A stretch of 52,481 nucleotides of DNA, taken from positions 1 to 52,481 of the forward strand of contig JAJDNV010000255.1 of the NCBI GenBank assembly GCA_022340545.1, in the 5' to 3' direction. The position numbers and the translations under genes were made by a program. A model generated the notes under the pieces. That model was given only the letters and a program-made list of their open reading frames with translations, was not told the DNA's origin and ran no database searches. This document shows positions 3,576-25,572 of the stretch, piece after piece (position 1 is the first letter of the stretch; every line of letters begins with the position of its first letter). This DNA is from Acidobacteriota bacterium. Its GTDB lineage: Bacteria > Acidobacteriota > Vicinamibacteria > Fen-336.

Positions 3576-3584
3576 AGCATAGCA
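3576..3584 (-). promoter_or_regulatory. Candidate extended -10 (TGCTATGCT) for the C-GCAxxG-C-C gene
   Basis: Identical 10-mer AGCATAGCAG also occurs at 5821-5830 upstream of the sigma54 activator; fits the recurring TGCTAnnnT motif. Confidence 0.45.
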
Positions 3585-3824
3585 GCCAGCCGGACCATTG
3601 CTGGAACGATAGACGGCCAGGTGCCTCGTACCCCACGGAGAGCGAAGCCCCCATCGTCGATTGGCAGCCCCCCCCAGCGCCGTGGGGCGGAAAGCAACTG
3701 ACCGGCGCGGCGCAAGCGAGGTACGCTTCCAGCCGGACGCCGGTGTTCGGCGGACAGCTCGTGTGAGCGCTGCCAGGAAGGGCCCGGTTCCGCCCGGGGG
3801 ACACGAGGACTGAGAGGTTTCCGT

Positions 3825-4364: not shown

Positions 4365-5825
4365 TCAGCCCCGTCCGGACGCGCCTTCCTTTGTCGCCAT
4401 GCGCCCGTCCCGGGTCGGCGGCTCGATCCCGAGCTTGCGGATCTTGCGGTGCAGGGTCGTCTTGTGCATGCCGAGCTCGCGCGCCGCCGCGGTGCGGTTC
4501 CCACCGCAACGCTCCAACGCCTCGCGGATCAGTCGGGTCTCGAAGGCCCCGACGGCCGAGGGCCGGTCGGTGTGCGAGCCGCGGACGCGAGCCCGGAACC
4601 AGTCGGGGAGATCCGAGACCTCGATGCGATCGGTGCCGGCCAGGACGTACGCGTGCTCCAGAATGTTCTCCAGCTCGCGCACGTTGCCCGGAAACTCGTA
4701 CGCCATGAGCAGTTCCATGACCTCATGCGACACGGTGCTCACGACCTTCGCCCGTGCCATCGACAGGCGACGCAGGAAGCTCTCCGCCAGCAGCGGTACG
4801 TCTTTGATTCGTTCTCTCAGCGGAGGTATCTCGAGCCGGATGACGTTGACCCGGTAGAACAGATCCTGCCGGAACCGCCCCTCCTCCACGAGCCTGCCGA
4901 GATCCTGGTGGGTGGCGACGACGATCCGGGCATCGGCCTCCCGGCTGCGCACCTCGCCCAGGGGCTCATAGAGCCTCTCCTGGAGCAGCCGGAGCAGCTT
5001 GACCTGGATCCCGACCGGCAGGTCCCCGATTTCGTCCAGAAACAGCGTTCCGCGCGCGGCCGCGGCGACCCGGCCCGGCTTGTCCCTGTTCGCCCCGGTG
5101 AAGGCGCCGGCCCGGTAGCCGAACAGCTCGGACTCCAGCAGCGGCTCGGGCAGGGCCCCGCAGTTGATGGTGACCAGCGGCCCGTCGCTCCGCGCGCTCA
5201 GGCGGTGGATGGCCTTCGCCAGCAACCCTTTCCCGGTGCCGCTCTCGCCCCCGATCAGGACCGTGCTCTCGCTCTCGGCGATCGTCGGCACGATGTCGAG
5301 GATGTGCAGGAGGACCGGGTCCTGGGTGATGATCTGCTCCCGGCCGTGATCGGCCTCCGCCTGCTGGAGAAGCTCCTTGACCAGGTTGAGGTCGCGGAAG
5401 GTCTCGACGCCCCCGATGACGTGTCCGTCCTTGTCCTTGAGGAGGGCGGTGGAGACGGTGACGGGGACCCGGTTCCCCCGAGCGTCGCGGATGTGCACGG
5501 GCAGATTCACGATCGGCCGACCCGTTTCCATCGTGTACCTGAGCGCGCACGCCTCCTCGCAGATGTTCGAGCGGAACACCTCGCGGCACGGCCGCCCGAG
5601 GGCTCGTACCCGGGGGATGCCGATGGTCCTCTCGGCGGCGCTGTTGAAGCAGGTGATGCGCCATTCCTTGTCGACGGCGAAGACGCCGTCGGAGATGCTG
5701 TTGACGACGGTCTCGAAACGGTCGCCGCACCCGTGAGTGTCGGGCGTCTTGGTGTCAGGCTGGGGTGTCCGGTCCTTCCTGGCCAGGATGTGCCTCGCTC
5801 TCCGTGCGCCTCGGATCTCGAGCAT
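4365..5825 (-). CDS. Sigma54-dependent activator, PAS-AAA+-Fis HTH, OrpR-like (C-X8-C-X3-C in PAS)
   Basis: [42 protein letters not shown]; PAS contains [14 protein letters not shown]. Start uncertain: the ATG at 5825 lies inside a likely -10 box, so CTG at 5786 is an alternative. Confidence 0.9.
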
Positions 5826-5852
5826 AGCAGAAACGCCACTGTACATTCTGGA

Positions 5853-5876
5853 CAGAGTAGCGGTATCGCTACTCTG
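5853..5876. promoter_or_regulatory. Palindromic upstream activator sequence for the sigma54 promoter
   Basis: Perfect inverted repeat CAGAGTAGCG-GTAT-CGCTACTCTG about 95-120 bp upstream of the -24 box; degenerate copy ATAGCA-GAAA-CGCCACT at 5824-5840. Confidence 0.7.
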
Positions 5877-5970
5877 CGAGTGTCTCCTCACCCACATGAA
5901 GGGCCTCGCTTCCATCGGCAGGACTGGCATCCAGAGAGAAGCGGGCGGAAGGCCCACCATCCTGTGGGGC

Positions 5971-5986
5971 TGGCACACGATCTGCT
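5971..5986 (+). promoter_or_regulatory. Sigma54 -24/-12 promoter
   Basis: TGGCAC-ACGAT-CTGCT with GG-N10-GC spacing, about 60 bp before ORF 6048, divergent from a sigma54 activator. Confidence 0.8.
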
Positions 5987-6047
5987 CTCTGTCTTGGTAG
6001 GCCCGGGGACGCAGCGGATGGCGCCCCGGAGGAAGGGAGACGACGAG

Positions 6048-6236
6048 ATGAAAGCCAAGCACGGAGACACCGTATACGTGGGACTCGAGCCCCACCACGC
6101 CGCGCGCCCCATGAAGGTGGTTGTGGCCGAGGACGGATGCACCTGGTTGTGCGACGCTGACGTGGACGAGAGCAAGGGCCTGAAGGAGCAGGGGTGCTGG
6201 AGTTGCGCCGAGGTCCCGTTCACCCGCGACGATTGA
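6048..6236 (+). CDS. Small (62 aa) Cys-rich hypothetical protein with CxxC
   Basis: MKAKHGDTVY...CTWLCD...GCWSCAEVPFTRDD; AAGGGAG RBS; first gene after the sigma54 promoter; appears only as the tail of a long shadow ORF in the track. Confidence 0.75.
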   Translation: MKAKHGDTVYVGLEPHHAARPMKVVVAEDGCTWLCDADVDESKGLKEQGCWSCAEVPFTRDD

Positions 6237-6291
6237 CCGGACCGGCGGCCAGCACGGACCCCCCGCCTGACCACCCGAAACGGAGGAGACA

Positions 6292-8247
6292 TTGAGCGAG
6301 GTCACGTTCACGCCGCTGGCGATCGGTGCCGTGATGCTGCCCAACCGGATCGCGCTGGCGCCGGTCAAGACCGCCCTGGGAGGCACGGACGGCTGTGCCT
6401 CCCGCCGGCACGTCGAGCACTACCGCCGCCGCGCCGCCGGAGGAGCGGGGCTCGTCATCGTGGAGCCGTTGTACGTCGATCCCCTCGGCAAGGAGCACCC
6501 GAAGCAGCTCGGGGCCTCCAGCGACGACGCCATCGCCGGCCTGCGGGACGTCGTGGAGGCGGTCCACAATCACGGTGCGCTTGCCTTCGCCCACCTCAAT
6601 CACGCCGGGCGCGCCGCGAACCCGAAGGCCATCGGCGGTGCGCCGGAGGCGCCGTCGGCCGTGGCCTGTCCGAGCACCGGAGCCACGCCCACGGCGATGA
6701 CCGGCGAGCGGATCCGGGAGATCGTGGGTGCCTACGGGCAGGCCGCGCGCCGGGCTCGCGAGAGCGGCTTCGACGGGGTCGAGATCCAGCTCGGCCTCGG
6801 CTACCTGCCGGCCCAGTTCCTGTCGCCGAGGACCAACCGGCGAGGCGACGAGTACGGGCCCCGCGGCGAAGACCGGTGGCGCTTCGCGCACGAGGTCGTG
6901 GCGGCGGTGCGTCGGACCCTTGGCGAATCGAGGGCCCTCACCGCTCGTCTGTCCGCCGAGGAGAAGGTCGAGGGTGGGTTGGCGCTCGCGGACGCGGTCG
7001 AGCTGGCGCGCCGGCTCGAGGAGTGGGGCGTCGACGGTTTGCACGTCGTTGTCGGCTCGGCCTGCGACAGCCCCGCCTGGTATTACCAACACATGGCGCT
7101 GCCCGAGGGCGTGAACGAGAAGCGAGCGGCGGACATCCGGGCCGAGGTCTCGATTCCGGTGATGGCGGCCGGTCGGCTCGGCGACCCGGGGCGCATCCGG
7201 TCGGTGCTTGGCGAGGGTGGCGTCGATGCCGTGGCCCTTGGGCGCCCCCTGCTCGCCGACCCGGACCTCCCGCACAAGATGGCGCAGGGTCGGGAGGACG
7301 AGATCATGGCCTGTGGGTCCTGCCTTCAGGGCTGCCTCGCCCAGGTGAAGGGCGGCGGGCCGATCGGCTGCATCGTCAACCCCGAGGTGGGGCACGAGGG
7401 GGTGGTGGCCCCGGCCGTGGCGCTCGGTGAGCGTCTGGTCGTGGTGGGTGGCGGCCCGGCGGGGATGGAGGCCGCGCTGATGGGTCGTCGTGCGGGGTAC
7501 GAGGTCACCCTGCTCGAGGGCGACGGTCGGCTGGGGGGGCAGTTCGCCCTGGCCCCCGTGAGTCCCGGCAAGGGGGCCATGGAGAGGCCCTTACGGTCGC
7601 TGATCCGGGCGGTGCAGAGCGCCGGCATCGACGTCCGGACGAGGTTCGATGCCACCCCGGCCGCCGTCGAGGCGCTCAAACCCGACCGCGTGGTCCTGGC
7701 GACAGGCTCCCGCCCCGTGATCCCTCCGATTCCCGGGTTGGACGATCCCCTCACCGCGGCAGAAATCCTGACCGGCCGCCGGCAGCCTGGACCGCGTGTG
7801 CTGATCCTCGGCGGCGGCCTCGTCGGCATCGAGATGGCCGAGATGCTGGCCGCCCGGGACCACGAGGTGGTGGTGGTCGAGCTGCTCGAGGACATCGCCC
7901 GCGACATGGAGGCCGTCACCCGCAAGATGACCCTCCGGCGCCTGCAGGAGCTGCCGCTGACGATCCACACCTCCACCCGCCTCACTCGGCTGGAAGACGG
8001 CGAGGCGTTCGTGGTCGCGGAAGGCTCGACCGACGAGGTCTCGGTGGGATCGTTCGACTCGGTGATAGTGGCGGTGGGGCACCGGTCGTACGATCCCCTC
8101 TCCGCCGAGCTCGAGAAGGCCGGCCTCGACGTGGCCGTCATCGGGGACGCGGTGCGGCCGGGCCAGATTCTTGACGCGACCCGGACGGGCTTCCTGGCCC
8201 TGACCCGCGACCGCGGGGCGTTGGCAGGGGGCGGTGACCACGGTTGA
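6292..8247 (+). CDS. NADH:flavin oxidoreductase, OYE barrel + 4Fe-4S + FAD/NAD domains (FadH/BaiCD/TMADH-like)
   Basis: LPNRIALAP, GYLPAQFLSPRTNRRGDEYG, LGRPLLADP, CGSCLQGC...CIVNP, GGGPAG, GGGLVG; TTG start after GGAGGAG. Confidence 0.9.
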   Translation: MSEVTFTPLAIGAVMLPNRIALAPVKTALGGTDGCASRRHVEHYRRRAAGGAGLVIVEPLYVDPLGKEHPKQLGASSDDAIAGLRDVVEAVHNHGALAFAHLNHAGRAANPKAIGGAPEAPSAVACPSTGATPTAMTGERIREIVGAYGQAARRARESGFDGVEIQLGLGYLPAQFLSPRTNRRGDEYGPRGEDRWRFAHEVVAAVRRTLGESRALTARLSAEEKVEGGLALADAVELARRLEEWGVDGLHVVVGSACDSPAWYYQHMALPEGVNEKRAADIRAEVSIPVMAAGRLGDPGRIRSVLGEGGVDAVALGRPLLADPDLPHKMAQGREDEIMACGSCLQGCLAQVKGGGPIGCIVNPEVGHEGVVAPAVALGERLVVVGGGPAGMEAALMGRRAGYEVTLLEGDGRLGGQFALAPVSPGKGAMERPLRSLIRAVQSAGIDVRTRFDATPAAVEALKPDRVVLATGSRPVIPPIPGLDDPLTAAEILTGRRQPGPRVLILGGGLVGIEMAEMLAARDHEVVVVELLEDIARDMEAVTRKMTLRRLQELPLTIHTSTRLTRLEDGEAFVVAEGSTDEVSVGSFDSVIVAVGHRSYDPLSAELEKAGLDVAVIGDAVRPGQILDATRTGFLALTRDRGALAGGGDHG

Positions 8248-9098: not shown

Positions 9099-11102
9099 TC
9101 ACCTGAGCAGCGAGCGGCCCACCATCTGCTCGGGCCGGCGGATGCCGAACCAGTCGAGGAGGGTCACCGGCAGATCGAGAATGCTCGGCCGGTCCCGGGT
9201 CACCGGGCGACTCGCCAAGAGCGTGCCCGGGACCAGATCGCGGGCCATGGAGTGGTCACCGCTCCAGGCCCAGGGGTTGAGGTCGATCGTCGAGCGCCCC
9301 GTTCCCCCCAGCACCGAGGGTGAGGAACAGCGGTAGCCGGGGGTGTACCCCACGAGCAGCTCGGCCATGCCGGGCGTGGCCTCCCCCTGGTACATCTCGT
9401 CCCTGCGATAGACCCGGGCGACCGGGCGCTGTCCGGTCTCGGGATCGACAACGCCCTCGAGCTCGCGCGTCAGCCGACCCAGGAGGCGCCCCGCCTTCTC
9501 GGGGCTCACGATGCCGCCCTTCTCCCGGCCCTCGAGGTTGAGGTAGAGGCCGTTGAAGCCGATCCCGTAGGCGGCGGTGCGGCTCCAATCCACGTCGGTG
9601 ATCGCCGTCTCCTCCTTCCTCCGCGCGGAGTCCTTCAGCGTCAGGTATCCGCTTTCGCGCAGCCAGGTGTTGAGGTGGAACTCCCGGGCGAAGGGGGCAA
9701 AGCCGTGGTCGGAACAGACGAGCAGCAGCGTCTGGTCGTCCACCGCGGGGAGAACCTCGCCCAGGAGCCCGTCCATCCGCTCGTAGAGGTACGGAATCCA
9801 CCCCGAGAACCGGACGTCCGAGTCGTGGTGGCGCGGGTGCGAAGGGTCCATGTTGCGCCAGAGCATGTGGGCGTCCTGGTCGGTGGAGGAGACGTAGAAG
9901 TAGAAGAGGCCGTCCTCGAAGCGTGACCAGAGGTGGCGAAACAGCGCCATGCGCTCTTCGAGGATCAGCTCCGCCTGACCCACGTACTGCTCGTCGTTGA
10001 TGATTCCGTAGTCCAGGGCCTTGGTGTCGCAGGGCAGACCCTTGGTCCAGTACGAGCCGATGTCGCGCGCGATGTCGGCCCCCAGCTCCTTCGGCCAGGT
10101 CACCGGCACCGCCTGGCTCTCCGGGTCGATGTTCACCGCGGTGGCATACAGCTGAAAGTGCGGTCTCACCTGCTTGAGAAGGAAGCGCACGATGCCCGAC
10201 ACCTTGCCGATGAGCGGCAGGAGCGTGAACTCCACCTTCACCCAGTCCGAGTACTCGCCCTTCTCGAGGATGACGGATCGTCCGCCGATCCGGATGCAGA
10301 CGGCGTCGCGGTCGGGGTCCAGGTGGACGGTGAAGGGGATCGAGGCCTGGTTCGCCCCGGTGCCCGGGGGCGGACTGACGAGCGTGTTGACCGGTCCCCG
10401 GAGCTCGGCATCGACCCGGTTGGCCTCGACCTCCACGTAGTCCACGGTGCCGCCGGAGATGTCGCCGTAGATCTCGAGGCGGTGGGAGGTGTAGTAGCTG
10501 AAAGACCCGTAGGAGTCGACGAGGTCGGGTGTCCCCATCCCGGAGATGGCGCCGGTGGCGGTCTCGTCGACCGGGAAGTTGGTCGGAACCTTCGAGACCC
10601 AGGCCGGAATGCCCCGCTCGGTCAGGTAGGCCCAGAACGGCTTCCCGCGACGCAGGCTCACCGGCCCGCCGCCGATCAGGGGGAGGTGGACGTCGCCGAA
10701 GTCGACGGTGACGCGGGGCGCGTGGTTCTCGAAGATGGAGAACTGCGGCAGGTGCGTGGCCGGGTCGCGGGCGATGAAGTCGCCGATGCCGTGGCCGCCC
10801 GGGGTCTGGCCGGTGATGAAGCTGGACCAGGCCACCGGGCTGAGGGCCGGCATCGTGGTGGCGAGGGGGCCGAAGGTGCCCATCTCGGCCAGCCTCTTGA
10901 AGTTCGGAAGTCGGCCGTGATCGGCCAGGCGGTGCACGATTCCGGGGTCCAACCCGTCGAGGGCAAGCACGATGGCCTTACGGCCGGCGGCGCGGCGGCG
11001 CGGGCCGCACCCCGGGAACGACGAGGCCAGTCCGCCGGTCACACCTCCGGCCAGGCGCCGCAGGAAGGTTCGACGATCATGATTGTCGATGGACCCGTCC
11101 AC
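9099..11102 (-). CDS. Alkaline phosphatase superfamily (type I phosphodiesterase/NPP-like) protein, Tat signal
   Basis: RRTFLRRL; VLALDGLD, PALSPVAWSSFITG, DQDAH, CSDHGF, WSGDH; GTG start overlaps upstream TAG, RBS GGAGGAG. Confidence 0.88.
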   Translation of the reverse strand: MDGSIDNHDRRTFLRRLAGGVTGGLASSFPGCGPRRRAAGRKAIVLALDGLDPGIVHRLADHGRLPNFKRLAEMGTFGPLATTMPALSPVAWSSFITGQTPGGHGIGDFIARDPATHLPQFSIFENHAPRVTVDFGDVHLPLIGGGPVSLRRGKPFWAYLTERGIPAWVSKVPTNFPVDETATGAISGMGTPDLVDSYGSFSYYTSHRLEIYGDISGGTVDYVEVEANRVDAELRGPVNTLVSPPPGTGANQASIPFTVHLDPDRDAVCIRIGGRSVILEKGEYSDWVKVEFTLLPLIGKVSGIVRFLLKQVRPHFQLYATAVNIDPESQAVPVTWPKELGADIARDIGSYWTKGLPCDTKALDYGIINDEQYVGQAELILEERMALFRHLWSRFEDGLFYFYVSSTDQDAHMLWRNMDPSHPRHHDSDVRFSGWIPYLYERMDGLLGEVLPAVDDQTLLLVCSDHGFAPFAREFHLNTWLRESGYLTLKDSARRKEETAITDVDWSRTAAYGIGFNGLYLNLEGREKGGIVSPEKAGRLLGRLTRELEGVVDPETGQRPVARVYRRDEMYQGEATPGMAELLVGYTPGYRCSSPSVLGGTGRSTIDLNPWAWSGDHSMARDLVPGTLLASRPVTRDRPSILDLPVTLLDWFGIRRPEQMVGRSLLR

Positions 11103-11905
11103 TATCTCTCCTCCGTGTTCAGTGCGTCCGTGCCCGAGCGATTGGCCGCGAGCGGGCGGTTGGAGTCCCTCCGGGGCGAGCGGCCCTCGAAGGGAGCCCC
11201 GTGGCCGGGGACGATCACGTCGGCGCGGCCGGCGATGAGCCGCATCTGCTCCGGGATGAGCTCGGGCCTCCATGACGAGCCCGGGGGCACCGCGCGTTCG
11301 CAGTGGTCGCGGTTCAGGATGAGATCGCCGGCCAGGGCGTAGACTCGACCGCCGACGCTGGCGAACACCGCGAGAGAGCCCGGTGTGTGCCCGGGGCAGT
11401 GGCGGACATAGACATGTCGCCCCAGCGTCTGAAGCGCGGGCCACGTCTCCGAGTCGCGCGGACGGGGGAAGGCCTCCGGGCTGAGCTCGAGCAGGGCGCT
11501 CCCCTTCAGCCTCAGCGTCCGGTCGCCCTTGAAGTAGAAGGCGAGCCGCTCGTCCTCGTGGAAGACGAAGAGGGCGTCCGAGAAGAGCTCCTTGTGCCCG
11601 ATGTGGTCCGGGTGGAGATGGGTGAAGAGGACCGCATGGATGTCCGCGGGCTCGAGCCCCCACACCCTCAGCGCGGAGAGGAGCTTCTCCGGGTCCTCCC
11701 CCGGGTGTCCCAGGTCCACCAGGACGCGAAAGCCGGCGCACTCGAGCAAGGTGCACGTGGGCCACGACTCCTTGACCCCCTCGTCGCGGGAGATCTCGAT
11801 GAGACCGGGGCGGACCACGGCGAGGGTGATGGACGGGGCCCCAGGCCCGGCGGCTGGCAATGCCAGGGCGAGCGTTCGGGCCCCTTCGTGGCGCTGCTTG
11901 TGCAT
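11102..11905 (-). CDS. MBL-fold metallo-hydrolase
   Basis: THLHPDHIG, PGHTPG, AGDL, VPGHG; AGGAG RBS. Confidence 0.88.
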   Translation of the reverse strand: MHKQRHEGARTLALALPAAGPGAPSITLAVVRPGLIEISRDEGVKESWPTCTLLECAGFRVLVDLGHPGEDPEKLLSALRVWGLEPADIHAVLFTHLHPDHIGHKELFSDALFVFHEDERLAFYFKGDRTLRLKGSALLELSPEAFPRPRDSETWPALQTLGRHVYVRHCPGHTPGSLAVFASVGGRVYALAGDLILNRDHCERAVPPGSSWRPELIPEQMRLIAGRADVIVPGHGAPFEGRSPRRDSNRPLAANRSGTDALNTEER

Positions 11906-11943
11906 ACGGACTCCTGAGATCACGACGTCGACAGGCTGGTGGT

Positions 11944-11959
11944 TGCACGGACCGCGCCA
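11944..11959 (-). promoter_or_regulatory. Candidate sigma54 -24/-12 promoter for the MBL-phosphodiesterase operon
   Basis: Minus strand TGGCGC-GGTCC-GTGCA about 40 bp upstream of ATG 11905. Confidence 0.5.
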
Positions 11960-12123
11960 CCGTGCTCGACGGCGGTGGTCCGCGGCCGTCAGGCCGGGAG
12001 GAGAGGCGTCTACCGCAAGCGTCCCGCCGTTGGGGCGGGTGGCGCTTCGTCAAGGGCAAGAGGATTCCCCACCGGCTGGGGGATATCCCGCGACGGACCC
12101 TGGGGCGGGGGCCCGCCCTTCGC

Positions 12124-15556: not shown

Positions 15557-16420
15557 TCACAGGAGGAGAACGGCCCCCGCGGTCAGGGCGAGGCCCACGG
15601 CCAGCATGCCCAGGAGCGACAGGGCGAACGTGGGCTCGGCGTCGCCCGCCCCCGTGGTTCGCCCCGGGGCCTCGAAGGTGGCCCGGACGTCGGCCCGAAG
15701 CATGTAGATCAGCACCGTCACCGAAGCGAAGGTGAAGGGACACACCAACAAGCCGATCCCCGCGGCCGCGATCTGGAGGTGGCGTGCCCAGGCTGCCCGC
15801 GCGCGGAGACCCACCGCCATGACGCCGGCCAGGGCCCCGAGCACCAGGCCTGTCCCCGCGGCCAGAACACCGACCACGGCCTCGGAGCGCAAGGCGACGA
15901 TGAGGCCTCCGGCCACGCAGGCCGGCACGGTCAGCGCCCACAGGAGCGAGAGGGCGGTGACGGTGAGGGGTGGCCGGGTTTCCGGCAGGGGCGCGGCCAC
16001 ACGTGCCGGTCGCAGCGTCGAGCGAGCGGACTGCGACCGGGCCCGCGACGAAGAAGGGTGTCGCCCGACGGGGGGACGGGGCGTCGGCGGCCGGCCGGTG
16101 AGATCCAGCTCGTCGGGGGCGACGACGACGGTCGCGCCGACGTCGGGCAGCACCTCGAGAACGGTGTCCCCCAGGCGCACGGTGTCGCCGGGGGAGAGGG
16201 GTGAGCGCTCCAGACGGCGGCCGTTCACATAGATGCCGTTGGCGCTCCCGGCGTCCCGAATGACGAGGCCGTCCGCGGTCTCTTCGATCACCGCGTGGCG
16301 CCGTGAGCACCGGCTGTCGCTCAGCACGATGTCGCAGGAGGGGTCGCGTCCGATGACGGCCTTTCCTGGCAGGTCGACCTCGTGGGGTGTGCCCTCGGGA
16401 TGGGAGACCTCGAGCTTCAT
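15557..16420 (-). CDS. FHA domain protein with Pro/Arg-rich linker and C-terminal transmembrane helices
   Basis: IGRD, SRRH, GSANG FHA motifs; several hydrophobic segments at the C-terminus. Confidence 0.85.
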   Translation of the reverse strand: MKLEVSHPEGTPHEVDLPGKAVIGRDPSCDIVLSDSRCSRRHAVIEETADGLVIRDAGSANGIYVNGRRLERSPLSPGDTVRLGDTVLEVLPDVGATVVVAPDELDLTGRPPTPRPPVGRHPSSSRARSQSARSTLRPARVAAPLPETRPPLTVTALSLLWALTVPACVAGGLIVALRSEAVVGVLAAGTGLVLGALAGVMAVGLRARAAWARHLQIAAAGIGLLVCPFTFASVTVLIYMLRADVRATFEAPGRTTGAGDAEPTFALSLLGMLAVGLALTAGAVLLL

Positions 16421-16453
16421 GGGCTTCACCGAGCGAACACGCGCCGACGCGAG

Positions 16454-16462
16454 ATTGTAGCA
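16454..16462 (-). promoter_or_regulatory. Candidate extended -10 (TGCTACAAT) for the FHA gene
   Basis: In the ~100 bp divergent gap between FHA and large GDH; TAGCAT on the + strand near 16491 may serve the GDH gene. Confidence 0.5.
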
Positions 16463-16522
16463 GGGGTCGACTTCGAACCGGGGGGCCGTGTAGCATCGCG
16501 GGGTTCCAAGGAGACTGCGAAG

Positions 16523-19500
16523 ATGGTGCCTGGAGATCCCGGGAAGCGGGCGGCGCGGCTCGCCGAGGTGGTCGAGATCGTCGGCCGTGAGGTCGCACCC
16601 GAACAGAGGGACCTGGCGCTGAGCTTCGTCTCCCTGGTCTTCGAGGACCTGCCTCCCCGCATCGCGCTCGAGCTCCCGGCCCCCGCCGTCGCCGCCCGTC
16701 TGCTCTCCCATTTCCATTTCGTGGCCCGTGAGATGCCGCCTCCCCACCAGCTCTACCGGGGGCTGCCCGGCATCCACGTCGCGGTGTGGAACCCCGCGGA
16801 CGAGCGGGCCCGCGCCCTGGGAGGGGGGGCGGGGCTGCCGATCGAGACCACGATCGTCCAGACCCACACCCCCGACAGGCCGTTCATCTTCGACAGCCTC
16901 AAGAACTACTTCCAGCGGTCGGGCGACCGGGTCTACTCCGCGATCCACCCGATGTTCACCGTCCGCCGGCAGTGGGAGCGGGTCGTCTCGTTCGGGGGAA
17001 TGCAGGACGAGGGGAGCCGGGAGAGCTACACCTTCTTCCAGATCGAGCCGCTCGAGTCGAAGGACCGCCGGCGCCGGATGGAGCACGAGATCTTCTCGCT
17101 TCTGAAGGCCGTCTTCCTCGCGGTGGACGACTTCGCGGACATGCGGCGTTCCTGTCGGGACCTCGTCGGCCGTCTTCGCAGCCCGCGGGGGGACGGCGAC
17201 CAACTGGCGTCGGCGCGGGGGTTCATCGAGTGGCTGCTCGAGGACAACTACATCTTCATGGGAACCGTGTCCTACCGGGTCGGCCGCGATGGGCGGTTCT
17301 ACCGGGTGGACGAGACCGCGCACGGGGCATTTGCGGACCCCGCGCTCCTGCCGATCGTCTTCCCGGGGGTCGGCGAGCACATTGAAGAGCATCTCCAGCC
17401 CCTCTCGGACGACAGCCGCATCATCGACCTGGATTTCTGCACCGGTGCCTCGGCGATCTACCACCTGGAGCCGATCGAGGACCTGACGCTGCGCGAGTGG
17501 GGCGAGGACGGTCGTCTCCAGAGCCTGACCTTCCTCCTGGGCCGGTTCGCCCGGGGCGCCTTCGCTCAGCGCGCGGACAGCATCCCGATCCTGCGGGAGA
17601 AGCAGCAGTGGCTGCTGGACCGCAGCGGGGCGACCCCGTTCTCGTACGTGTGGCGCCGGACGCGCGCCACCTTCAACCAGCTTCCCAAGGCGGACCTGCT
17701 CTACGCCGACGTGGCCGACCTCAAGCGGCTGATCGACCGCATCGTCCACGTCGCGAGCGACAACGAGGTGATCGTCGAGGGGCGCCAGGGCCCCGGCTAC
17801 GAGACCCTCTACGTGGCCTTCTCCCGGCTGCGCTACTCCTATCGCACCGAGCGGGAGCTGGGCCGGGCGCTGGGGGAGGCGTTCGGCCCCGTCGCCTTTG
17901 CGACCTCGGTGAGCGCAGGGGCGGTGAGCGTCCTCATCTTCTACTTCGACTCAGCCGGGCTGGACCGCCCGGTCGACGTCGCCGAGGCGAGGACGCTGGT
18001 CGTCTCCCTCGTTACGACCTGGGAGGACCGCATCGCGGCGGCGCTCGAGCAGGCGTTCGGCGAGAGGGAGGGACGGCGACTCTTTCGACGCTACGTGACC
18101 CCGGAGACGCGCAGCGGCCTCTACCGGGAGGTGACGGCGCCCGAGGACGTGCCCGCCGACCTCGAGCGTCTCGAGCAGCTCGAGCTCCGCCTCGACGTGC
18201 GGGTCGTCCCACGGACCGCCGAGCGGGTGACGATCATCCTCTACTCGGTGCGTGGTCTCGACCTCACGGACATCCTGAAGACGATGCAGAACCTCGGGCT
18301 GACCGTCCTCGAGGAGATGTGCATCCCGCTCAGCCTGCCCGAGGGCCGGCGCTGCCTGCTGTATCGCTTCGACGTCGAGGCGCCGCCGGAGCGGATCGCC
18401 GCGCTCCTCGACGGGGAGGGGCGGGTCGCCGAGGCCCTGCGCGCCCTCGACGAGGAGCGGGCCACGGACGACCCACTCAACGGGCTGATCCTCTCCGCCG
18501 GGCTCGGCTGGCGCGACGTGGAGATCCTGCGGACGCTGCGCAACCACCTGCTACAGATCCGGTCGCACTGGGCGGCGGACACGGTGAGCGGGGTGCTGGT
18601 GCGGAACGCGGGCGTCGCCGGTGCGCTTCATCGGGCCTTCGCGACGCGGTTCGACCCGACCCTCGAGGGCGCGGAGCCTCGCGAGCAGGCGATCGAGGAG
18701 GCGGACGCCGGCGTCGAGCAGGAGCTCGAGGCGGTGCGGAGCCTGGCCGAGGACGAGGTCCTCCGGGCCCTCGCCAACCTGATCGCCGCTTCTGTGCGCA
18801 CGAACGCGTACCAGCGGCCGGAGCGACCGGTCTTCTCGATCAAGGTCGACAGCGCCCGGGTGGAGGGGATGCCGTCGCCGCGTCCGATGTACGAGGTCTT
18901 CCTCCACTCCCGCCGCCTCGAGGGCATCCACCTGCGCGGTGGACGCGTCGCCCGAGGTGGCATCCGCTGGTCGGACCGACCCGACGACTACCGCACCGAG
19001 GTCCTGGGCCTGATGAAGACCCAGATGGTGAAGAACTCCGTGATCGTGCCCGTGGGGTCGAAGGGCGGCTTCGTTCTCAAGGGCCCGATCCCGCCGCGGC
19101 CGGCGCTCGACGAGTTCCTCGTGGACCGTTATCGGGAGTACGTGTCCGGCCTCCTCGACGTGACCGACAACCGCGAGGACGGGCGCATCCTCCACCCCCC
19201 CGAGGTGGTGCGCCACGACGGCGACGACGCCTATCTCGTGGTGGCGGCGGACAAGGGGACCGCACACCTCTCCGACACCGCCAACCAGGTTTCCTCCCAG
19301 TACGGTTTCTGGCTCGGGGACGCGTTCGCTTCCGGGGGCAGCGTCGGGTATGACCACAAGAAGATGGGGATCACCGCCCGGGGGGCCTGGGAGTGCGTCC
19401 ACCACCACTTCCGCAACCTGGGCCTGGACACCCAGAAGGACCCGTTCACGGTTGCGGCCATCGGCGACATGGGGGGAGACGTCTTCGGTAACGGAATGCT

Positions 19501-20815
19501 CCTCTCACCGGCGATCCGGCTGGTGGCCGCCTTCAATCACCTCCACATCTTCCTGGACCCCGACCCCGACGCCGAGGCGAGCTTTGCGGAGCGGGAGCGT
19601 CTTTTTCGCCTGCCGCGCTCGAGCTGGCGCGACTACGACACGGCGCTGATCAGCGCGGGCGGCGGCGTGTTCGACCGCTCGGCGAAGGCCGTCCCGTTGT
19701 CGCCGGAGGTGCGCCGGCTGCTCGAGATCGACGCGCCGAGCGCGCCGGGGGAGGCCGTCATCCGCAAGATCCTGACCTCCAAGGTGGATCTCCTCTACAA
19801 CGGCGGGATCGGCACGTATGTCAAGGCCTCGAGCGAGGAGCACGTCGAGGTCGGCGACCGCTCGAACGATCGGGTGCGGGTGGACGCGCGCGACGTGCAG
19901 GCCCGCGTCGTCGGCGAAGGCGGCAACCTGGGCCTCACCCAGAGGGCTCGGCTCGAGTACTGGGCGGGCGGGGGACGGGTGAACACCGACGCCATCGACA
20001 ACTCCGGGGGAGTCGATGCCTCCGACCACGAGGTGAACATCAAGATCCTGCTCGACATGCTCTGCAAGAAGGGGCTGATCGAGGGGCGGAAGGAGCGCGA
20101 CCGGATCTTCCTCGACATGACCGACGACGTCGCCGACCTGGTTCTCGCCGACAACGCGGGCCAGGCCCTGGCCCTGAGCCTGGACGGCCGGCGCAGCGTG
20201 CGGGACTACGAGGCGTTCGTCAGCCTGTTCGACGACATGGCGGGGGCGGGGCTCCTCAACCGGGCGGACGAGTTCGTGCCCCGGCGCAAGGAGCTGCTCG
20301 CGAGCCCGACCCGCGAACGTGGTCTCCCGCGGCCCCTTCTCGGCGTCCTGCTCGGCTACGCGAAGATGTCGGTCTACCAGCTCCTTCTCGAGACCGACTT
20401 CCCCGACCGCCCGGCCGCGCGGCCGTTCCTCGATGGCTACTTCCCGGCGCTCCTGCGGGAGCGCTTCGCCGAGCACTTCGAGGAGCACGTCCTCCGACGG
20501 GAGATCGTCGCCACCGCAGCCGTCAACTACCTGATCAATCGGGGAGGCGTCACGCTGCTGCCCCGACTCACCGGCGTGGCCGAGGTCTTGATCGGTGATG
20601 CGGTGGCGGCGTGGGTCGAGATCGACCGGGAGGCCGAGGCCGAGGCGCTGCGCGAGGCACTGCTCGCGGCCCGGCGCCCCGCCCGCGAGGAGCAGGAGGC
20701 GCTTCTCGAGATCGAAGACGCGCTCGAGATCTCGGTGGCCGAGAGACTCGCGGGGGGGACGGGCGAGGGAGCGGAGAAGGCGCTGCGGGCCATCCGAGAA
20801 CGGCTGGCGCTGTGA
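16523..20815 (+). CDS. gdhB: Large NAD-specific glutamate dehydrogenase (~1430 aa)
   Basis: HLRGGRVARGGIRWSDR, LMKTQMVKN, GSKGGF, YLVVAADKGTA, GDAFASGGS, GDMGGDVFGNG, EGGNLG, DAIDNSGGV. Confidence 0.93.
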   Translation: MVPGDPGKRAARLAEVVEIVGREVAPEQRDLALSFVSLVFEDLPPRIALELPAPAVAARLLSHFHFVAREMPPPHQLYRGLPGIHVAVWNPADERARALGGGAGLPIETTIVQTHTPDRPFIFDSLKNYFQRSGDRVYSAIHPMFTVRRQWERVVSFGGMQDEGSRESYTFFQIEPLESKDRRRRMEHEIFSLLKAVFLAVDDFADMRRSCRDLVGRLRSPRGDGDQLASARGFIEWLLEDNYIFMGTVSYRVGRDGRFYRVDETAHGAFADPALLPIVFPGVGEHIEEHLQPLSDDSRIIDLDFCTGASAIYHLEPIEDLTLREWGEDGRLQSLTFLLGRFARGAFAQRADSIPILREKQQWLLDRSGATPFSYVWRRTRATFNQLPKADLLYADVADLKRLIDRIVHVASDNEVIVEGRQGPGYETLYVAFSRLRYSYRTERELGRALGEAFGPVAFATSVSAGAVSVLIFYFDSAGLDRPVDVAEARTLVVSLVTTWEDRIAAALEQAFGEREGRRLFRRYVTPETRSGLYREVTAPEDVPADLERLEQLELRLDVRVVPRTAERVTIILYSVRGLDLTDILKTMQNLGLTVLEEMCIPLSLPEGRRCLLYRFDVEAPPERIAALLDGEGRVAEALRALDEERATDDPLNGLILSAGLGWRDVEILRTLRNHLLQIRSHWAADTVSGVLVRNAGVAGALHRAFATRFDPTLEGAEPREQAIEEADAGVEQELEAVRSLAEDEVLRALANLIAASVRTNAYQRPERPVFSIKVDSARVEGMPSPRPMYEVFLHSRRLEGIHLRGGRVARGGIRWSDRPDDYRTEVLGLMKTQMVKNSVIVPVGSKGGFVLKGPIPPRPALDEFLVDRYREYVSGLLDVTDNREDGRILHPPEVVRHDGDDAYLVVAADKGTAHLSDTANQVSSQYGFWLGDAFASGGSVGYDHKKMGITARGAWECVHHHFRNLGLDTQKDPFTVAAIGDMGGDVFGNGMLLSPAIRLVAAFNHLHIFLDPDPDAEASFAERERLFRLPRSSWRDYDTALISAGGGVFDRSAKAVPLSPEVRRLLEIDAPSAPGEAVIRKILTSKVDLLYNGGIGTYVKASSEEHVEVGDRSNDRVRVDARDVQARVVGEGGNLGLTQRARLEYWAGGGRVNTDAIDNSGGVDASDHEVNIKILLDMLCKKGLIEGRKERDRIFLDMTDDVADLVLADNAGQALALSLDGRRSVRDYEAFVSLFDDMAGAGLLNRADEFVPRRKELLASPTRERGLPRPLLGVLLGYAKMSVYQLLLETDFPDRPAARPFLDGYFPALLRERFAEHFEEHVLRREIVATAAVNYLINRGGVTLLPRLTGVAEVLIGDAVAAWVEIDREAEAEALREALLAARRPAREEQEALLEIEDALEISVAERLAGGTGEGAEKALRAIRERLAL

Positions 20816-21075: not shown

Positions 21076-22437
21076 ATGAACGACTACGTTTCCGCCCTCC
21101 TGGTCGACGTCCAGGGCAAGAACCCGGCCGAGCCGGAGTTCCATCAGGCCGTCCAGGAGGTTGCCGAGTCACTGGCCCTGGTGCTGGACCGTCATCCGGA
21201 GTACCGGCACTCCCGGGTCCTCGAGCGGATCATCGAGCCCGAGCGGGTCATCCTGTTCCGGGTGCCCTGGGTGGACGACAAGGGGGAGGTGCAGATCAAC
21301 CGCGGGTTCCGAATCGAGATGAACAGCGCGATCGGCCCGTACAAGGGAGGGTTGCGATTCCACCCTTCAGTGAACCTCGGCATCCTGAAGTTCCTGGCCT
21401 TCGAGCAGGTGTTCAAGAACTCGCTCACCACCCTGCCCATGGGCGGCGGGAAGGGCGGCAGCGACTTCGACCCGAAGGGCAAGAGCGACAACGAGGTCAT
21501 GCGGTTCTGCCAGAGCTTCATGAGCGAGCTGTTCCGCCACATCGGTCCCAACACCGACGTCCCCGCCGGCGACATCGGGGTGGGGGGACGCGAGATCGGG
21601 TTCCTGTTCGGACAGTACAAGCGTCTCCGCAACGAGTTCACCGGTGTCCTCACCGGGAAGGGCCTGAACTGGGGCGGGTCGCTCATCCGGCCCGAGGCGA
21701 CCGGCTACGGGTGCGTGTACTTCGCGCAGGAGATGCTGGGCACGCGCAAGGAGACCCTGGAGGGCAAGGTCTGCCTCGTCTCCGGCAGCGGCAACGTGGC
21801 CCAGTACACCGTGGAGAAGCTCCTCGACCTTGGAGGCAAACCGGTGACGTTGTCCGACTCGAGCGGCAGCATCTTCGACGAGGCCGGCATCGACCGCGAG
21901 AAGCTGAGCTTCGTGATGGACCTGAAGAACGTCCGGCGGGGTCGTATCAAGGAGTACGCCGAGAAGTATCAGTCAGCGGTCTACACCGAGACCGATCCCA
22001 GGCTGGACCACAATCCCCTCTGGGACCACAAGGCCCAGTGCGCGTTCCCGTCGGCGACCCAGAACGAGATCAACGGCAAGGACGCGGCCAATCTGCTCCG
22101 GCAGGGTGTCTACGTCATCGGCGAAGGTGCCAACATGCCGGCCACCGTCGAGGCGGTCAACCAGTTCGTGGACGCGGGCATCCTGTACGGGCCGGGCAAG
22201 GCCGCCAACGCCGGCGGAGTAGCGGTGTCCGGGCTGGAAATGGCCCAGAACAGCATGCGCTACGGCTGGACCCGGAAGGAGGTCGACAACCGGCTCCAGC
22301 TCATCATGAGCAGCATCCACGAGGCCTGCGTGGGGACCGCGGATCGCTTCGGGGTCCCGGGAAACTACGTCGACGGGGCCAACATCGCGGGCTTCCTCAA
22401 GGTCGCGGACGCGATGATGGACCAGGGAGTCGTGTAG
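21076..22437 (+). CDS. gdhA: NADP-specific glutamate dehydrogenase
   Basis: GPYKGGLRFHPSV, LPMGGGKGGSDF, DVPAGDIGVG, RPEATGYG, GSGNVA, GKAANAGGV. Confidence 0.96.
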   Translation: MNDYVSALLVDVQGKNPAEPEFHQAVQEVAESLALVLDRHPEYRHSRVLERIIEPERVILFRVPWVDDKGEVQINRGFRIEMNSAIGPYKGGLRFHPSVNLGILKFLAFEQVFKNSLTTLPMGGGKGGSDFDPKGKSDNEVMRFCQSFMSELFRHIGPNTDVPAGDIGVGGREIGFLFGQYKRLRNEFTGVLTGKGLNWGGSLIRPEATGYGCVYFAQEMLGTRKETLEGKVCLVSGSGNVAQYTVEKLLDLGGKPVTLSDSSGSIFDEAGIDREKLSFVMDLKNVRRGRIKEYAEKYQSAVYTETDPRLDHNPLWDHKAQCAFPSATQNEINGKDAANLLRQGVYVIGEGANMPATVEAVNQFVDAGILYGPGKAANAGGVAVSGLEMAQNSMRYGWTRKEVDNRLQLIMSSIHEACVGTADRFGVPGNYVDGANIAGFLKVADAMMDQGVV

Positions 22438-22614
22438 CGGGACTCCGAAGTCGTGTGAGCATCGCAGACCACGTGGCGAGGGGCGCGGCGGGCGGGGTGC
22501 ACGCCGTGCCCCCGCAGAGCCCGGCGTGGTCGAGCGTCGGGCGACTTCCGCGACACCCAGGTTCGTACCCGGTCCCGTCGTGCTAGGCTTCCCGCCGAAG
22601 AGGGCACCATCGCG

Positions 22615-25572
22615 ATGAGCACGACCGACGGCCGGCGTCGATACCACGACTACCAGGACCTGATGCGGTACCGCATCATGGACATCCTGCTGGTGTCGAC
22701 GCCCTACGACACGTTCATACTGGAGGAGGCGGGCGAGCTCGCGGAGCGGATGCTCGGCGAGTTCCGCAACCTGGATCTGCACTACGCGCCCGCCCTCAAC
22801 GGGGTCACCTCCGGGGCGGCTGCCCTCCGGCTCGCCCGTGAGCGACGCATCAACCTGATCATCACCACGCCGTACCTTCCGGACATGGACGCGGCCGAGC
22901 TCGCCAGGCAGGTGAAGGAGGCGAGGCTGGACGTTCCGGTCGTCCTCCTGGCCTGGGACACCCGGGAGCTGCGGGAGTTCGAGGCCCGGGCCGACACGTC
23001 CGCGATCGAGCGGAGCTTCCTATGGCAGGGCGACGCGCGCATCCTCGTCGCCATCGTGAAGTCGGTCGAGGACCGGCGGAACGTCGATCACGACACCCGC
23101 TCGGTCGGGGTGCAGGTGATTCTCCTCATCGAGGACAACGTCCGCTACTACTCCTCGTTCCTTCCCGTCATCTACGCCGAGCTCCTCCAGCACTCGCGGC
23201 GGGTGGTCAAGGAAGGCATCAACCTGTCCCAGCAGATTCTGCGGATGCGGGCGCGTCCGAAGATCCTGCTGTGCACGACGTGGGAGGAAGCGGAGGAGAT
23301 CTTCGACAAGTACGCGGAGGACGTCCTCGGGGTCATCTCGGATGTCCAGTTCCCCCGCGGAGGGGTGAAGAGCCCGCAGGCCGGTGCCGACTTCGCGCGG
23401 CACGTGGGAGAGGCCTATCCGGACGTCCCGATCATCCTCCACTCCTCGCGTCCGGAGAACGAGGCCCTCGCCGAGAAGGTGGGGTCCAACTTCCTTCTCA
23501 AGGGCTCACCACTCCTCCTGCAGGAGCTCCGCAAGGTGATGCTGCAGGACTTCGCCTTCGGCGACTTCATCTTCAAGGACCGGGCCGGGAACGAGCTGAC
23601 CCGGGCCGCCGACCTGCGGGAGATGGAGGAGAAGCTGACCGTGGTGCCCCCGGAGTCGATCATCCGCCACGCCGAGCGCAACCACTTCTCACGCTGGCTC
23701 AAGGCGCGGACGGAGTTCGCCCTCGCCCACGAGCTGCGGCCTCGCCGCCTGAGCGACTACGGAGACATCGAGGGGCTTCGGGAGAACCTCATCCAGACCA
23801 TCAAGCGGTACCGCGTGGAGCAGAGCCAGATCCTGGTGACCGACTTCGACCGATCGACCTTCGACTTGAGCGGCGACTTCTATCGGATCGGCGGCGGCTC
23901 GCTCGGGGGCAAGGCCCGTGGGCTTGCCTTCGTCCGGCGGATGCTGGGCGAGCGGCGGCTGCGGAACCACTTCGACGGCGTAGAGGTGGCGGTTCCCGAG
24001 ACCGCGGTGCTCGGAACCGATATCTTCGACAACTTCCTCGACCTGAACGACCTCAAGCTCTTCGCCATCGAGTGCGACGAAGACGAGGAGATCCAGCGCC
24101 GGTTCGTGGCCGCTCGCTTCCCGGAGGGAGCGGAGCGGGACGTGGCCGCCTTTCTGGAGAAGGCGGCGTGGCCCCTGGCCGTCAGGTCCTCGAGCCTGCT
24201 CGAGGACTCGCAGCACCAGCCGTTCACCGGGGTCTACGAGACCCTGATGCTCCCGAACAACGAATGGAGCCTCGGGGAGCGACTTGAGCGCGCGCTCGAG
24301 GCGATCAAGCGTGTCTACGCCTCGACCTTCTCGCAGCACGCCAAGGCCTACCTGCGGGCCACTCCCTACCGGCTGGAAGAGGAGAAGATGGCCGTGCTCC
24401 TCCAGCGCATCGTGGGCTCGGCGCGGGGAGAACGCTTCTACCCCGACTTCTCCGGAGTGGCGCGATCTCAGAACTTCTACCCGACCCCGCCGCTCGAGGC
24501 GGGGGACGGGATCGTCGCGGTGGCCCTCGGCATGGGAAGGACGATCGTCGAGGGGGGGGCGTGTCTGCGCTTCAGCCCGAAGCATCCGAAGCACATCCTC
24601 CAGTTCTCATCAGTGCCGGAAATGCTGGCCACGACGCAGCGCGAGTTCTGGGCACTATCGCTCGAAGGTGGGGGCGGCAACGGGGGCATGCGCGAGCAGC
24701 CCTTTGAGCTCTCCGTCGCCGAGAAGGACGGTGCGCTCGTGGCGATGGGCTCGACCTACTCGCCGGAGAACGACGTCGTCTATGACGGCATGTCGCGGCC
24801 CGGCCCCCGGGTCGTGACCTTCGCGCCCATCCTGAAGCACGGGCGCTTCCCCCTCGCCGAGGTGATCGGGACCCTCATGGAGACCGGGGAGCGCGGCATG
24901 GGAGTGCCGGTGGAGATCGAGTTCGCGGTCAGCCTCGCCTGCCGGCCGGGGGCGCGGTGCGAGTTCGGGTTCCTGCAGCTGCGTCCACTCTCGCTCAGCC
25001 GGGAGATGGAAGCACTCGACCTGGCCGACGTCGACCAGGCGGAGGTGCTCTGCCGGAGCGATCGGGTGCTCGGCAACGGCCGCGTCGAGGAGCTCCGCGA
25101 CCTCGTCGTGGTCGACTTTCAGCGCTTCGAGCGCGCGCAGAGCCGGGAGGCGGCGGCGGAGGTGGCCCGGCTGAACCGCCTGCTCCTCTCGGAAGAACGG
25201 CCCTACGCCCTCATCGGTGTCGGGCGGTGGGGCTCACGCGATCCCTGGCTGGGGATCCCCGTGGCGTGGGACCAGGTGGCGGGAGCGCAGGTCATCGTGG
25301 AAGCGGGTCTGCGGGACCTCAGGGTGACGCCCTCCCAGGGCACTCACTTCTTCCAGAACCTCACGTCGTTCAACGTGGGCTACTTCACCGTGAACCCCGA
25401 GATCGGAGAAGGCTACGTCGACTGGGACTGGCTCAACGCCCAGCCCGCTCTCTCGCACGCCGCCCACGTGAGGCATCTGCGCCTGGAGCACCCGATCCTG
25501 GTCCTGATGGACGGCCGGCGGAACGAGGGCCTGATCCTCAAGGACGCCCGTTCGCTCTCGGCGCCGGAGTGA
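22615..25572 (+). CDS. PEP/pyruvate-binding (PPDK_N ATP-grasp) domain protein with N-terminal receiver domains and C-terminal putative phospho-His domain
   Basis: GGKARGL, AVRSSSLLEDS, FTGVYET, EIEFA, LQLRP; receiver motifs IED/ISD/HSS/LLK; SQGTHFFQN; no C-terminal TIM barrel. Confidence 0.85.
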   Translation: MSTTDGRRRYHDYQDLMRYRIMDILLVSTPYDTFILEEAGELAERMLGEFRNLDLHYAPALNGVTSGAAALRLARERRINLIITTPYLPDMDAAELARQVKEARLDVPVVLLAWDTRELREFEARADTSAIERSFLWQGDARILVAIVKSVEDRRNVDHDTRSVGVQVILLIEDNVRYYSSFLPVIYAELLQHSRRVVKEGINLSQQILRMRARPKILLCTTWEEAEEIFDKYAEDVLGVISDVQFPRGGVKSPQAGADFARHVGEAYPDVPIILHSSRPENEALAEKVGSNFLLKGSPLLLQELRKVMLQDFAFGDFIFKDRAGNELTRAADLREMEEKLTVVPPESIIRHAERNHFSRWLKARTEFALAHELRPRRLSDYGDIEGLRENLIQTIKRYRVEQSQILVTDFDRSTFDLSGDFYRIGGGSLGGKARGLAFVRRMLGERRLRNHFDGVEVAVPETAVLGTDIFDNFLDLNDLKLFAIECDEDEEIQRRFVAARFPEGAERDVAAFLEKAAWPLAVRSSSLLEDSQHQPFTGVYETLMLPNNEWSLGERLERALEAIKRVYASTFSQHAKAYLRATPYRLEEEKMAVLLQRIVGSARGERFYPDFSGVARSQNFYPTPPLEAGDGIVAVALGMGRTIVEGGACLRFSPKHPKHILQFSSVPEMLATTQREFWALSLEGGGGNGGMREQPFELSVAEKDGALVAMGSTYSPENDVVYDGMSRPGPRVVTFAPILKHGRFPLAEVIGTLMETGERGMGVPVEIEFAVSLACRPGARCEFGFLQLRPLSLSREMEALDLADVDQAEVLCRSDRVLGNGRVEELRDLVVVDFQRFERAQSREAAAEVARLNRLLLSEERPYALIGVGRWGSRDPWLGIPVAWDQVAGAQVIVEAGLRDLRVTPSQGTHFFQNLTSFNVGYFTVNPEIGEGYVDWDWLNAQPALSHAAHVRHLRLEHPILVLMDGRRNEGLILKDARSLSAPE

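Follow-up and report, generated by a model that had tools for sequence, protein, structure and literature searches.

The window, by which we mean the whole stretch of DNA that was analysed, covers 52,481 nucleotides (nt) of contig JAJDNV010000255.1 (GCA_022340545.1) from an Acidobacteriota bacterium (Vicinamibacteria, Fen-336) and has a G+C content of about 70%. On its forward strand a gene for a large glutamate dehydrogenase (GDH), the gdhA gene for the hexameric GDH, a 177-bp spacer and a 985-codon open reading frame (ORF) follow one another in this order, with gdhA directly upstream of the ORF and on the same strand. The subject of this analysis is the dikinase-like protein of 985 amino acids (aa) encoded by the ORF, whose gene is linked to gdhA in many phyla and for which we propose a regulatory role centred on GdhA. 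The features of the locus, with the evidence on which each was assigned, are given below.

16382..20815, forward strand: large NAD-specific GDH (Bac_GDH_CD), up to 1477 aa (PF05088, 770 bits)
21076..22437, forward strand: gdhA (P0002), NADP-type hexameric glutamate dehydrogenase (NF006929, 742 bits)
22438..22614: spacer of 177 bp between gdhA and the dikinase-like gene
22615..25572, forward strand: dikinase-like gene (P0001), 985 aa (ORF open under translation table 11, and its translation)
22672..23034, forward strand: pseudo-receiver, residues ~20-140, with T85 at the acceptor position (PF00072, PhoP alignment, model)
23107..23550, forward strand: divergent receiver, residues ~165-312, D243 codon at 23341-23343 (conservation, weak PF00072 match, Foldseek match to PleD)
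23557..23844, forward strand: small helical DUF5752-like domain, residues ~315-410, with H352, W361 and R365 (PF19027, conservation)
23872..25014, forward strand: PPDK_N-type ATP-grasp, residues ~420-800 (PF01326, RPH profile matches, Foldseek)
25027..25569, forward strand: C-terminal His-bearing domain, residues ~805-985, H911 codon at 25345-25347 (conservation, secondary structure of the model)

More than 1300 cluster representatives matched the 985-aa protein at E ≤ 1e-30. We built a family alignment (n = 103) from the protein itself and 102 of the 150 representatives listed among these matches, which were about 950-1020 aa long and matched in one stretch, leaving aside 48 that were shorter, longer or split. 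An AlphaFold2 model of the whole protein based on this alignment (mean predicted local distance difference test score, 93.3; predicted template modelling score, 0.91) was laid out as two (βα)5 units, a five-helix bundle, an ATP-grasp and a C-terminal α/β domain. A first-pass annotation, made from the sequence alone, had listed a pseudo-receiver, a receiver, a further small domain, an ATP-grasp and a C-terminal domain, and every one of these elements proved to be present. No HisKA or HATPase_c domain was detected in the protein by Pfam.

The first receiver fold matched the Pfam Response_reg family (PF00072) over residues 62-113 with 30.9 bits, just above the cut-off of 30.2, and showed the (βα)5 pattern in the model. 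Its T85, in the sequence NLIITT, aligned with the phospho-acceptor Asp of PhoP; across the family this column is occupied by Met in 55 members, Thr in 16, Phe in 8, Val in 6, Ser in 5 and Leu in 4, and Asp is not among these six commonest residues. The set of receiver hallmarks (acidic pocket, acceptor Asp, Thr/Ser and Lys) is complete in the second receiver and not in the first. E173 was found in 98 of the 103 sequences, D174 in 87, D243 in 92, S277 in 93 (with Thr in 4 more) and K296 in 96. In a conservation subset of 55 gdhA-linked members, E173, D243 and K296 were invariant and D174 nearly so; S277 fell in neither class. The match of this receiver to PF00072 was weak (15.8 bits), and 40 of the 55 members matched at E ≤ 1, all under the cut-off. 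In the model it adopts the (βα)5 pattern with a long α1 and an extra helix (residues 176-199 and 204-212) and a hairpin after D243. Foldseek matched the model to chains of the tandem-receiver protein PleD (E 7e-8 to 4e-7), which likewise carries two consecutive receiver folds, only one of them with an acceptor Asp. The arrangement differs from that of PleD in that the pseudo-receiver comes first and the output is dikinase-like, not GGDEF.

The small domain that follows gave a sub-threshold match to DUF5752 (PF19027) at residues 349-407 (19.9 bits against a cut-off of 23); a genome-wide scan scored it at 20.5 bits alone and at 24.9 bits, flagged as over the cut-off, when summed with in-frame neighbours. 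H352 is found in 90 of the 103 family members and W361 in all of them. In relatives of this genome, six of six loci with a genuine stand-alone DUF5752 gene (about 220 aa; L116-L121) have a TreT-type trehalose synthase gene immediately downstream of it. The DUF5752 family may thus be a partner of TreT-type trehalose synthase, a hint that its fold is an enzyme-partner module; that the domain serves for docking in the present protein is speculative.

In the ATP-grasp, PF01326 (PPDK_N) matched residues 429-800 with 116.4 bits against a cut-off of 27, and the motifs GGK433, R524-S-S-S-x-x-E-D, E767-x-E769 and LQ788xRP were all found. G431, K433, R524, S525, S526 and Q788 are invariant in the family alignment, and E530, D531, E767, E769 and R790 are conserved in at least 90% of its members. 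Profile searches matched this region to RPH (5hv1 and 5fbs, E 1e-12) with the RSS..ED motif aligned, and the best Foldseek matches in the PDB were RPH (5hv3 and 5hv1, E 2e-11), HpeI (9goj), PEPS (2ols), PleD and PPDK. The best NCBIfam and PDB matches of the core were of the PpsA/RPH type, not PPDK. As the first-pass annotation had stated, the pyruvate/phosphoenolpyruvate (PEP) barrel is absent: neither PEP_utilizers_C (PF02896) nor any other acceptor-binding domain was detected in the protein by Pfam. Nor was a third domain of the rifampin-binding or glucan-binding type recognized, and the protein ends 75 residues past H911. PpsA and PPDK share the PPDK_N ATP-grasp and its catalytic motifs with our protein but contain the barrel and the PF00391 phospho-His domain, neither of which was matched here. 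Elsewhere in the genome we found six canonical PF00391 matches and several PPDK_N matches, some of them in the same open frame, so that the genome has conventional PpsA/PPDK-type genes as well. With the barrel missing here, the case that the first-pass annotation had named as counting against its proposal, an ordinary PpsA, was not borne out.

Between the ATP-grasp and the C-terminus lies a domain marked by the motifs GRWGS (residues 870-874), GIPV (880-883) and PSQG[ST]HFF[QH]N, the last of which contains H911. This His was kept in 101 of the 103 family members, in 78 of 78 C-terminal domains and in 12 of 12 paralogues described below; together with the conservation of D243, this bears out the assumption of the first-pass annotation that the His and Asp would both be conserved. 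In the model H911 opens a helix (residues 911-918) that is followed by a strand. By eye, the stretch S.DPWLGIP...GA.VIVE.G...SQG[ST]H resembles TDPaW..lf..a.AvivE.GG..SH of the genome's own PpsA/PPDK-type genes. Foldseek alignments with PPDK chains extended over 659-688 columns, as against 383-440 for matches confined to the ATP-grasp, which hints that the domain after the ATP-grasp, as modelled, is co-linear with the central domain of PPDK.

We analyzed the genomic surroundings of the gene in three samples. For the cross-phylum sample one genome per species was scanned, which yielded at least 598 relatives, and the best 80 loci were analyzed. According to their record titles, these came from Acidobacteriota, Myxococcota, Actinomycetota, Bacteroidota/Ignavibacteria, Gemmatimonadota, Planctomycetota, Bdellovibrionota, Calditrichia, Zixibacteria, Fibrobacteres, Eisenbacteria, Krumholzibacteria and a Syntrophomonadaceae metagenome-assembled genome (MAG). 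Of the 80 loci, 57 had a gdhA gene (≥50% identity) in the fetched flanks, no further than 10 kb away, and in 46 of them the distance was at most 600 bp; in these 46, gdhA lay upstream on the same strand in 35, downstream on the same strand in 5, downstream on the opposite strand in 5 and upstream on the opposite strand in 1. Four further loci had a distant GDH (about 30% identity) directly downstream. There was no other conserved neighbour among the 80 loci, the next commonest cluster being a GltD-like oxidoreductase (11 of 80).

The second sample comprised 301 Acidobacteriota genomes, for which counts were scripted from coordinates. The full-length gene was present in 101 of them, and GdhA was found in 95 of these 101 compared to 29 of the 200 genomes lacking the gene. 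Of the 101 carriers, 69 had gdhA no more than 650 bp from the gene and 78 no more than 5 kb from it. When both GDH classes were counted, these numbers rose to 78 and 83, respectively; many of the 18 genes left over are located at contig ends. The third sample, centred on a Bacteroidales MAG and tallied by hand, comprised 101 genomes, 18 of which had the gene. GdhA was present in all 18, compared to 12 of the 83 genomes without it, and gdhA was adjacent in 12 of the 18. Five of five genomes whose gene did not adjoin gdhA had GdhA elsewhere. The linkage to gdhA is thus real and strong, in agreement with the enrichment across phyla on which the first-pass annotation had made its proposal depend. 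Because gene orders varied and the pairing is spread over phyla, the pairing appears to be under selection.

The same core recurs in many genomes in two other architectures. The bare form consists of the ATP-grasp and His domain only (about 580-615 aa) and has no receivers. The third form (1050-1170 aa) combines a weak GAF match, the PPDK_N core, the GRWGS/GTHFF domain and a C-terminal Pol-beta-type nucleotidyltransferase; examples in GDH loci are L069:13950-17108 (forward), L002:105-1610 (forward), L127:2125-5313 (forward) and L128:4623-8123 (reverse). The nucleotidyltransferase recalls protein nucleotidylylation of the GlnE/GlnD type. The motifs GGK, RSSS.LED, ExE, LQxRP, GRWG[ST] and S.G[STA]HFF were kept in all 12 paralogues inspected (10 of 10 receiver-less and 2 of 2 of the nucleotidyltransferase type). 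In the Acidobacteriota sample, the bare form lay directly behind a second GDH, of the archaeal/Gram-positive type, in 15 of 19 cases tallied by hand (L122, L123, L124 and L125 are such loci; in L123, for example, the paralogue at 440-2203 and the GDH at 2239-3789 are both on the reverse strand). Mirror loci were also seen, in which the bare core follows the second GDH on one strand and the receiver form follows gdhA on the other. In four genomes of the Bacteroidales-centred sample the gdhA-plus-partner module was duplicated, each partner copy being accompanied by its own GdhA copy; the modules were in tandem in three of them (G381:C34:15934-24837, G441:C1:3662061-3673414 and G353:C31:9307-18567) and on two contigs in the fourth (C12 and C13 of G429).

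These paralogues bear on the acceptor of the phosphoryl group, for which the first-pass annotation had named either the protein's own receiver Asp or a protein such as GDH. Since the His is kept in all 12 paralogues of other architecture and appears to work without a receiver, it is unlikely that the receiver Asp generally serves as its acceptor. On the other hand, the presence of one partner paralogue per GDH paralogue fits protein-specific recognition better than a shared metabolite, which favours the second proposal.

We also compared the GdhA sequences themselves. The only positions that discriminated linked from unlinked GdhAs were M82, A108 and D449. A 'DQG' tail is also present in some unlinked GdhAs, and the comparison yielded no candidate modification site. 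In a quick GdhA tree, in which the unlinked set came from one phylum only, 45 of the 57 linked sequences fell in one well-supported, short-branched clade and the unlinked ones sat on long stems. The linkage label changed 8 times on this tree, compared to 17.8 times in shuffles, and none of 500 shuffles gave a value as low. The identity matrices of the partner and of GdhA were correlated in a Mantel test (r = 0.71, reached by none of 2000 permutations), calculated without a species-tree control; we attribute this correlation to shared history and do not take it as evidence of co-evolution.

A precedent for a barrel-less dikinase relative was published in 2026. According to the main text of that paper, VadK (Rv1127c) of Mycobacterium tuberculosis, a PPDK relative without the barrel, uses ATP and Mg to phosphorylate its own His422, co-precipitates with PrpC and PrpD, the products of neighbouring genes, and tunes flux through the methylcitrate cycle (PMC13400623). 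Considering this precedent, the reading that we favour, in which we place about even confidence, is that the 985-aa protein is a receiver-gated, VadK-like, dikinase-derived regulatory phosphotransferase that would autophosphorylate H911 from ATP and act on or with GdhA. It could work in three steps. (i) A histidine kinase encoded elsewhere would phosphorylate D243 of the second receiver, and the pseudo-receiver/receiver pair would shift the oligomeric or domain arrangement, as in PleD. (ii) The ATP-grasp, once released, would bind ATP and load H911 with a phosphoryl group, or with a pyrophosphoryl group to begin with, as in PpsA, PPDK, RPH and VadK; this step is suggested because the ATP-grasp motifs are intact and the His is effectively invariant. 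(iii) The phospho-His domain would hand the phosphoryl group to a residue of GdhA or would bind the hexamer in a phosphorylation-dependent manner, so that GDH activity would be switched with nitrogen and carbon status; the pointers to this last step are gene linkage and paralogue pairing.

A more specific version of this proposal, which we put forward tentatively and regard as doubtful, is that the dikinase module, by means of a swivelling phospho-His domain, uses ATP to phosphorylate GDH itself, as part of a dedicated covalent cascade comparable to GlnE/GlnD for glutamine synthetase. The receiver-gated form, the form with GAF and nucleotidyltransferase and the bare core would then be sensor-specific variants, each matched to a GDH paralogue of its own. 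GlnE and GlnD are dedicated covalent-modification enzymes for glutamine synthetase, the other ammonium-assimilating enzyme. The likeness lies in the idea of a dedicated modifier and in the Pol-beta-type nucleotidyltransferase carried by a paralogue in GDH loci; the present protein has no homology to them, and the analogy is functional.

Several results weigh against a GdhA-directed phosphotransferase. The identity of the C-terminal domain as a phospho-His carrier is indirect, as it relies on the resemblance in motif and topology and on the longer PPDK alignments of the model. PF00391 gave no match in the protein at E ≤ 0.1 and matched none of the 78 C-terminal domains even at E ≤ 10. Comparison of the domain with canonical carrier profiles by hhalign returned probabilities of 0.3 (6 sequences) and 0.26 (34 sequences), a forced global hhalign alignment with canonical carrier domains showed no similarity, and a PDB profile search with the domain produced no matches. 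The ESM Atlas, searched with residues 800-985, yielded nothing other than fragments of this same family (0.88). When 58 linked GdhAs were set against 20 unlinked ones, no Ser, Thr, Tyr or His proved specific to the linked set. The linkage counts come from mutually related genomes and therefore overstate the number of independent events. Moreover, 19 of the 80 cross-phylum loci had no GDH in the fetched flanks, several of which end at contig ends, and some of these GDH-less loci adjoin other enzymes of glutamate and 2-oxoglutarate, which fits a metabolite-centred role too. Finally, no HisKA-type kinase gene was found within the window, that is, no cognate kinase lies nearby.

The alternative that best withstands these data, though we consider it unlikely, is that the protein is a small-molecule dikinase of the glutamate/2-oxoglutarate node, which phosphorylates a metabolite or makes a signal, GDH being a pathway neighbour and not the target. 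RPH, HpeI and phenylphosphate synthase are dikinases that phosphorylate small molecules, and the nearest solved relatives of our protein (RPH 5hv1/5hv3, HpeI 9goj and PEPS 2ols) are all of this kind; the conserved small helical domain could serve as a ligand-binding site. In loci without an adjacent gdhA, the neighbours include, besides the GltD-like oxidoreductase (L009, L036, L004 and 8 other loci), a 2-oxoacid:ferredoxin oxidoreductase (L068), a glutamate decarboxylase (L033), an asparagine synthase (L020 and L071) and carbamoyltransferases (L035 and L017). Against such a role, Pfam revealed no substrate-binding domain comparable to the rifampin-binding domain or the PEP barrel, and the receiver-less paralogues, at about 580 aa, consist of the ATP-grasp and His domain only. 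Nor would a shared metabolite require that separate paralogues of one genome be paired one-to-one with separate GDH paralogues.

We consider it improbable that the protein is a self-contained His-to-Asp relay, in which the ATP-grasp would load H911 and H911 would in turn phosphorylate the protein's own D243, making it a kinase and a response regulator in one with the phospho-receiver as output. Such a relay would be in keeping with the conservation of H911 and of the whole receiver pocket; in addition to the lack of a histidine kinase gene in the window, none recurs among the 80 loci, and in one of these (L045) a GAF histidine kinase gene lies directly downstream. However, the 10 receiver-less and 2 nucleotidyltransferase-type paralogues all keep the His and every ATP-grasp motif, indicating a non-receiver acceptor, and D243 is absent from 11 of the 103 family members, whereas H911 is kept in 101. 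Furthermore, receivers that precede an enzymatic domain normally act as inputs, and a relay would leave the protein without an output domain. There is likewise little chance that the protein is a catalytically silent or ATP-sensing adaptor with a structural His, which would bind GDH or another partner and report energy and receiver state. In favour of an adaptor, known carrier domains do not resemble the C-terminal domain in sequence, and the model in the VadK paper's main text also invokes binding and not proven transfer (PMC13400623). Against it, the ATP-grasp motifs and G[ST]H are near-invariant in all three architectures and in many phyla, as expected of an active enzyme.

A GdhA-directed phosphotransferase would differ from each of the known systems that it resembles. 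VadK shares with our protein an ATP-binding domain and a His domain without the barrel, a gene near those of metabolic enzymes and, as proposed in both cases, post-translational control by direct contact. By contrast, VadK is about 50 kDa in size, has no receivers, is derived from PPDK and has partners in the methylcitrate cycle, and the main text of the paper deals with neither GDH nor receivers (PMC13400623). The present protein, which we compared with VadK by description only, has a PpsA/RPH-type ATP-grasp, a His domain unrecognizable by sequence and GDH as its proposed partner. RPH, which was the best profile and Foldseek match for the ATP-grasp, is a dikinase that converts ATP and its substrate to AMP, inorganic phosphate and the phospho-substrate by means of a swivelling His domain, and the paper describing it points to a large unexplored superfamily whose substrates are unknown (PMC4844700). 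Dikinase chemistry of this kind is what we would expect of the core of our protein. In RPH, a large rifampin-binding domain separates the ATP-grasp from the His domain, which follow each other directly in our protein; RPH also has no receivers.

The one familiar example of a swivel-type phospho-His domain that transfers to a protein is Enzyme I of the phosphotransferase system, which phosphorylates HPr with the aid of a helical docking subdomain. Enzyme I is loaded from PEP via a barrel, however, and not from ATP via an ATP-grasp, so that the likeness is one of analogy only.

Our literature searches on dikinase/receiver fusions, DUF5752 and the regulation of gdhA/GDH retrieved no description of this family. 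The first-pass annotation had called it a candidate for an undescribed system, which may hold for the family but not for the underlying concept of a dikinase-derived regulatory kinase, published for VadK in the 2026 paper (PMC13400623).

GDH stands where carbon and nitrogen metabolism meet, and we know of no dedicated post-translational regulator of a bacterial hexameric GDH. If the proposed role is correct, the family would represent a widespread, unrecognized layer in the control of ammonium assimilation in soil Acidobacteriota, the Bacteroidota group, Myxococcota, Gemmatimonadota, Planctomycetota and others. The idea behind VadK, the recruitment of dikinases as regulatory kinases, would no longer be confined to a single actinobacterial case but would extend to a large family spanning many phyla, and that family would be wired into two-component signalling. 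Should GDH itself prove to be phosphorylated, the protein would be the first protein-directed dikinase.

As for the locus itself, the gene is present in a single copy in its own genome, and the source labels of its close homologues are Acidobacteriota or Vicinamibacteria. The large GDH gene directly 5′ of gdhA, on the same strand, is particular to this locus, as none of the 80 related loci has a large GDH. The genome also encodes a second, unlinked GdhA paralogue (55% identity; G000:C199:6572-7903) and hence has three GDH genes in two size classes. Genes for the E1 and E2 components of a 2-oxoacid dehydrogenase lie upstream on the opposite strand, and a phosphotriesterase-family gene lies downstream, also on the opposite strand.

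Scans for regulatory elements were unrevealing. The σ54 promoter pattern occurred 33 times compared to 34.5 expected, which is the level of chance, and was absent from the spacers before gdhA and before the partner gene. A scan for σ70 promoters and terminators around the genes gave nothing useful, and no Rfam family was matched there. The G+C-rich spacer at 22438-22614 can form a long hairpin that is no better than that of shuffled sequence (z = −1.05), and it has no T-run terminator. Two PAS-domain σ54 activators are encoded in the window, at 4365-6386 on the reverse strand and at 49556-51352 on the forward strand. A 986-aa ORF at 9099-12059 on the reverse strand has as its sole Pfam match a type I phosphodiesterase/nucleotide pyrophosphatase domain in the middle of the protein (residues 363-489).

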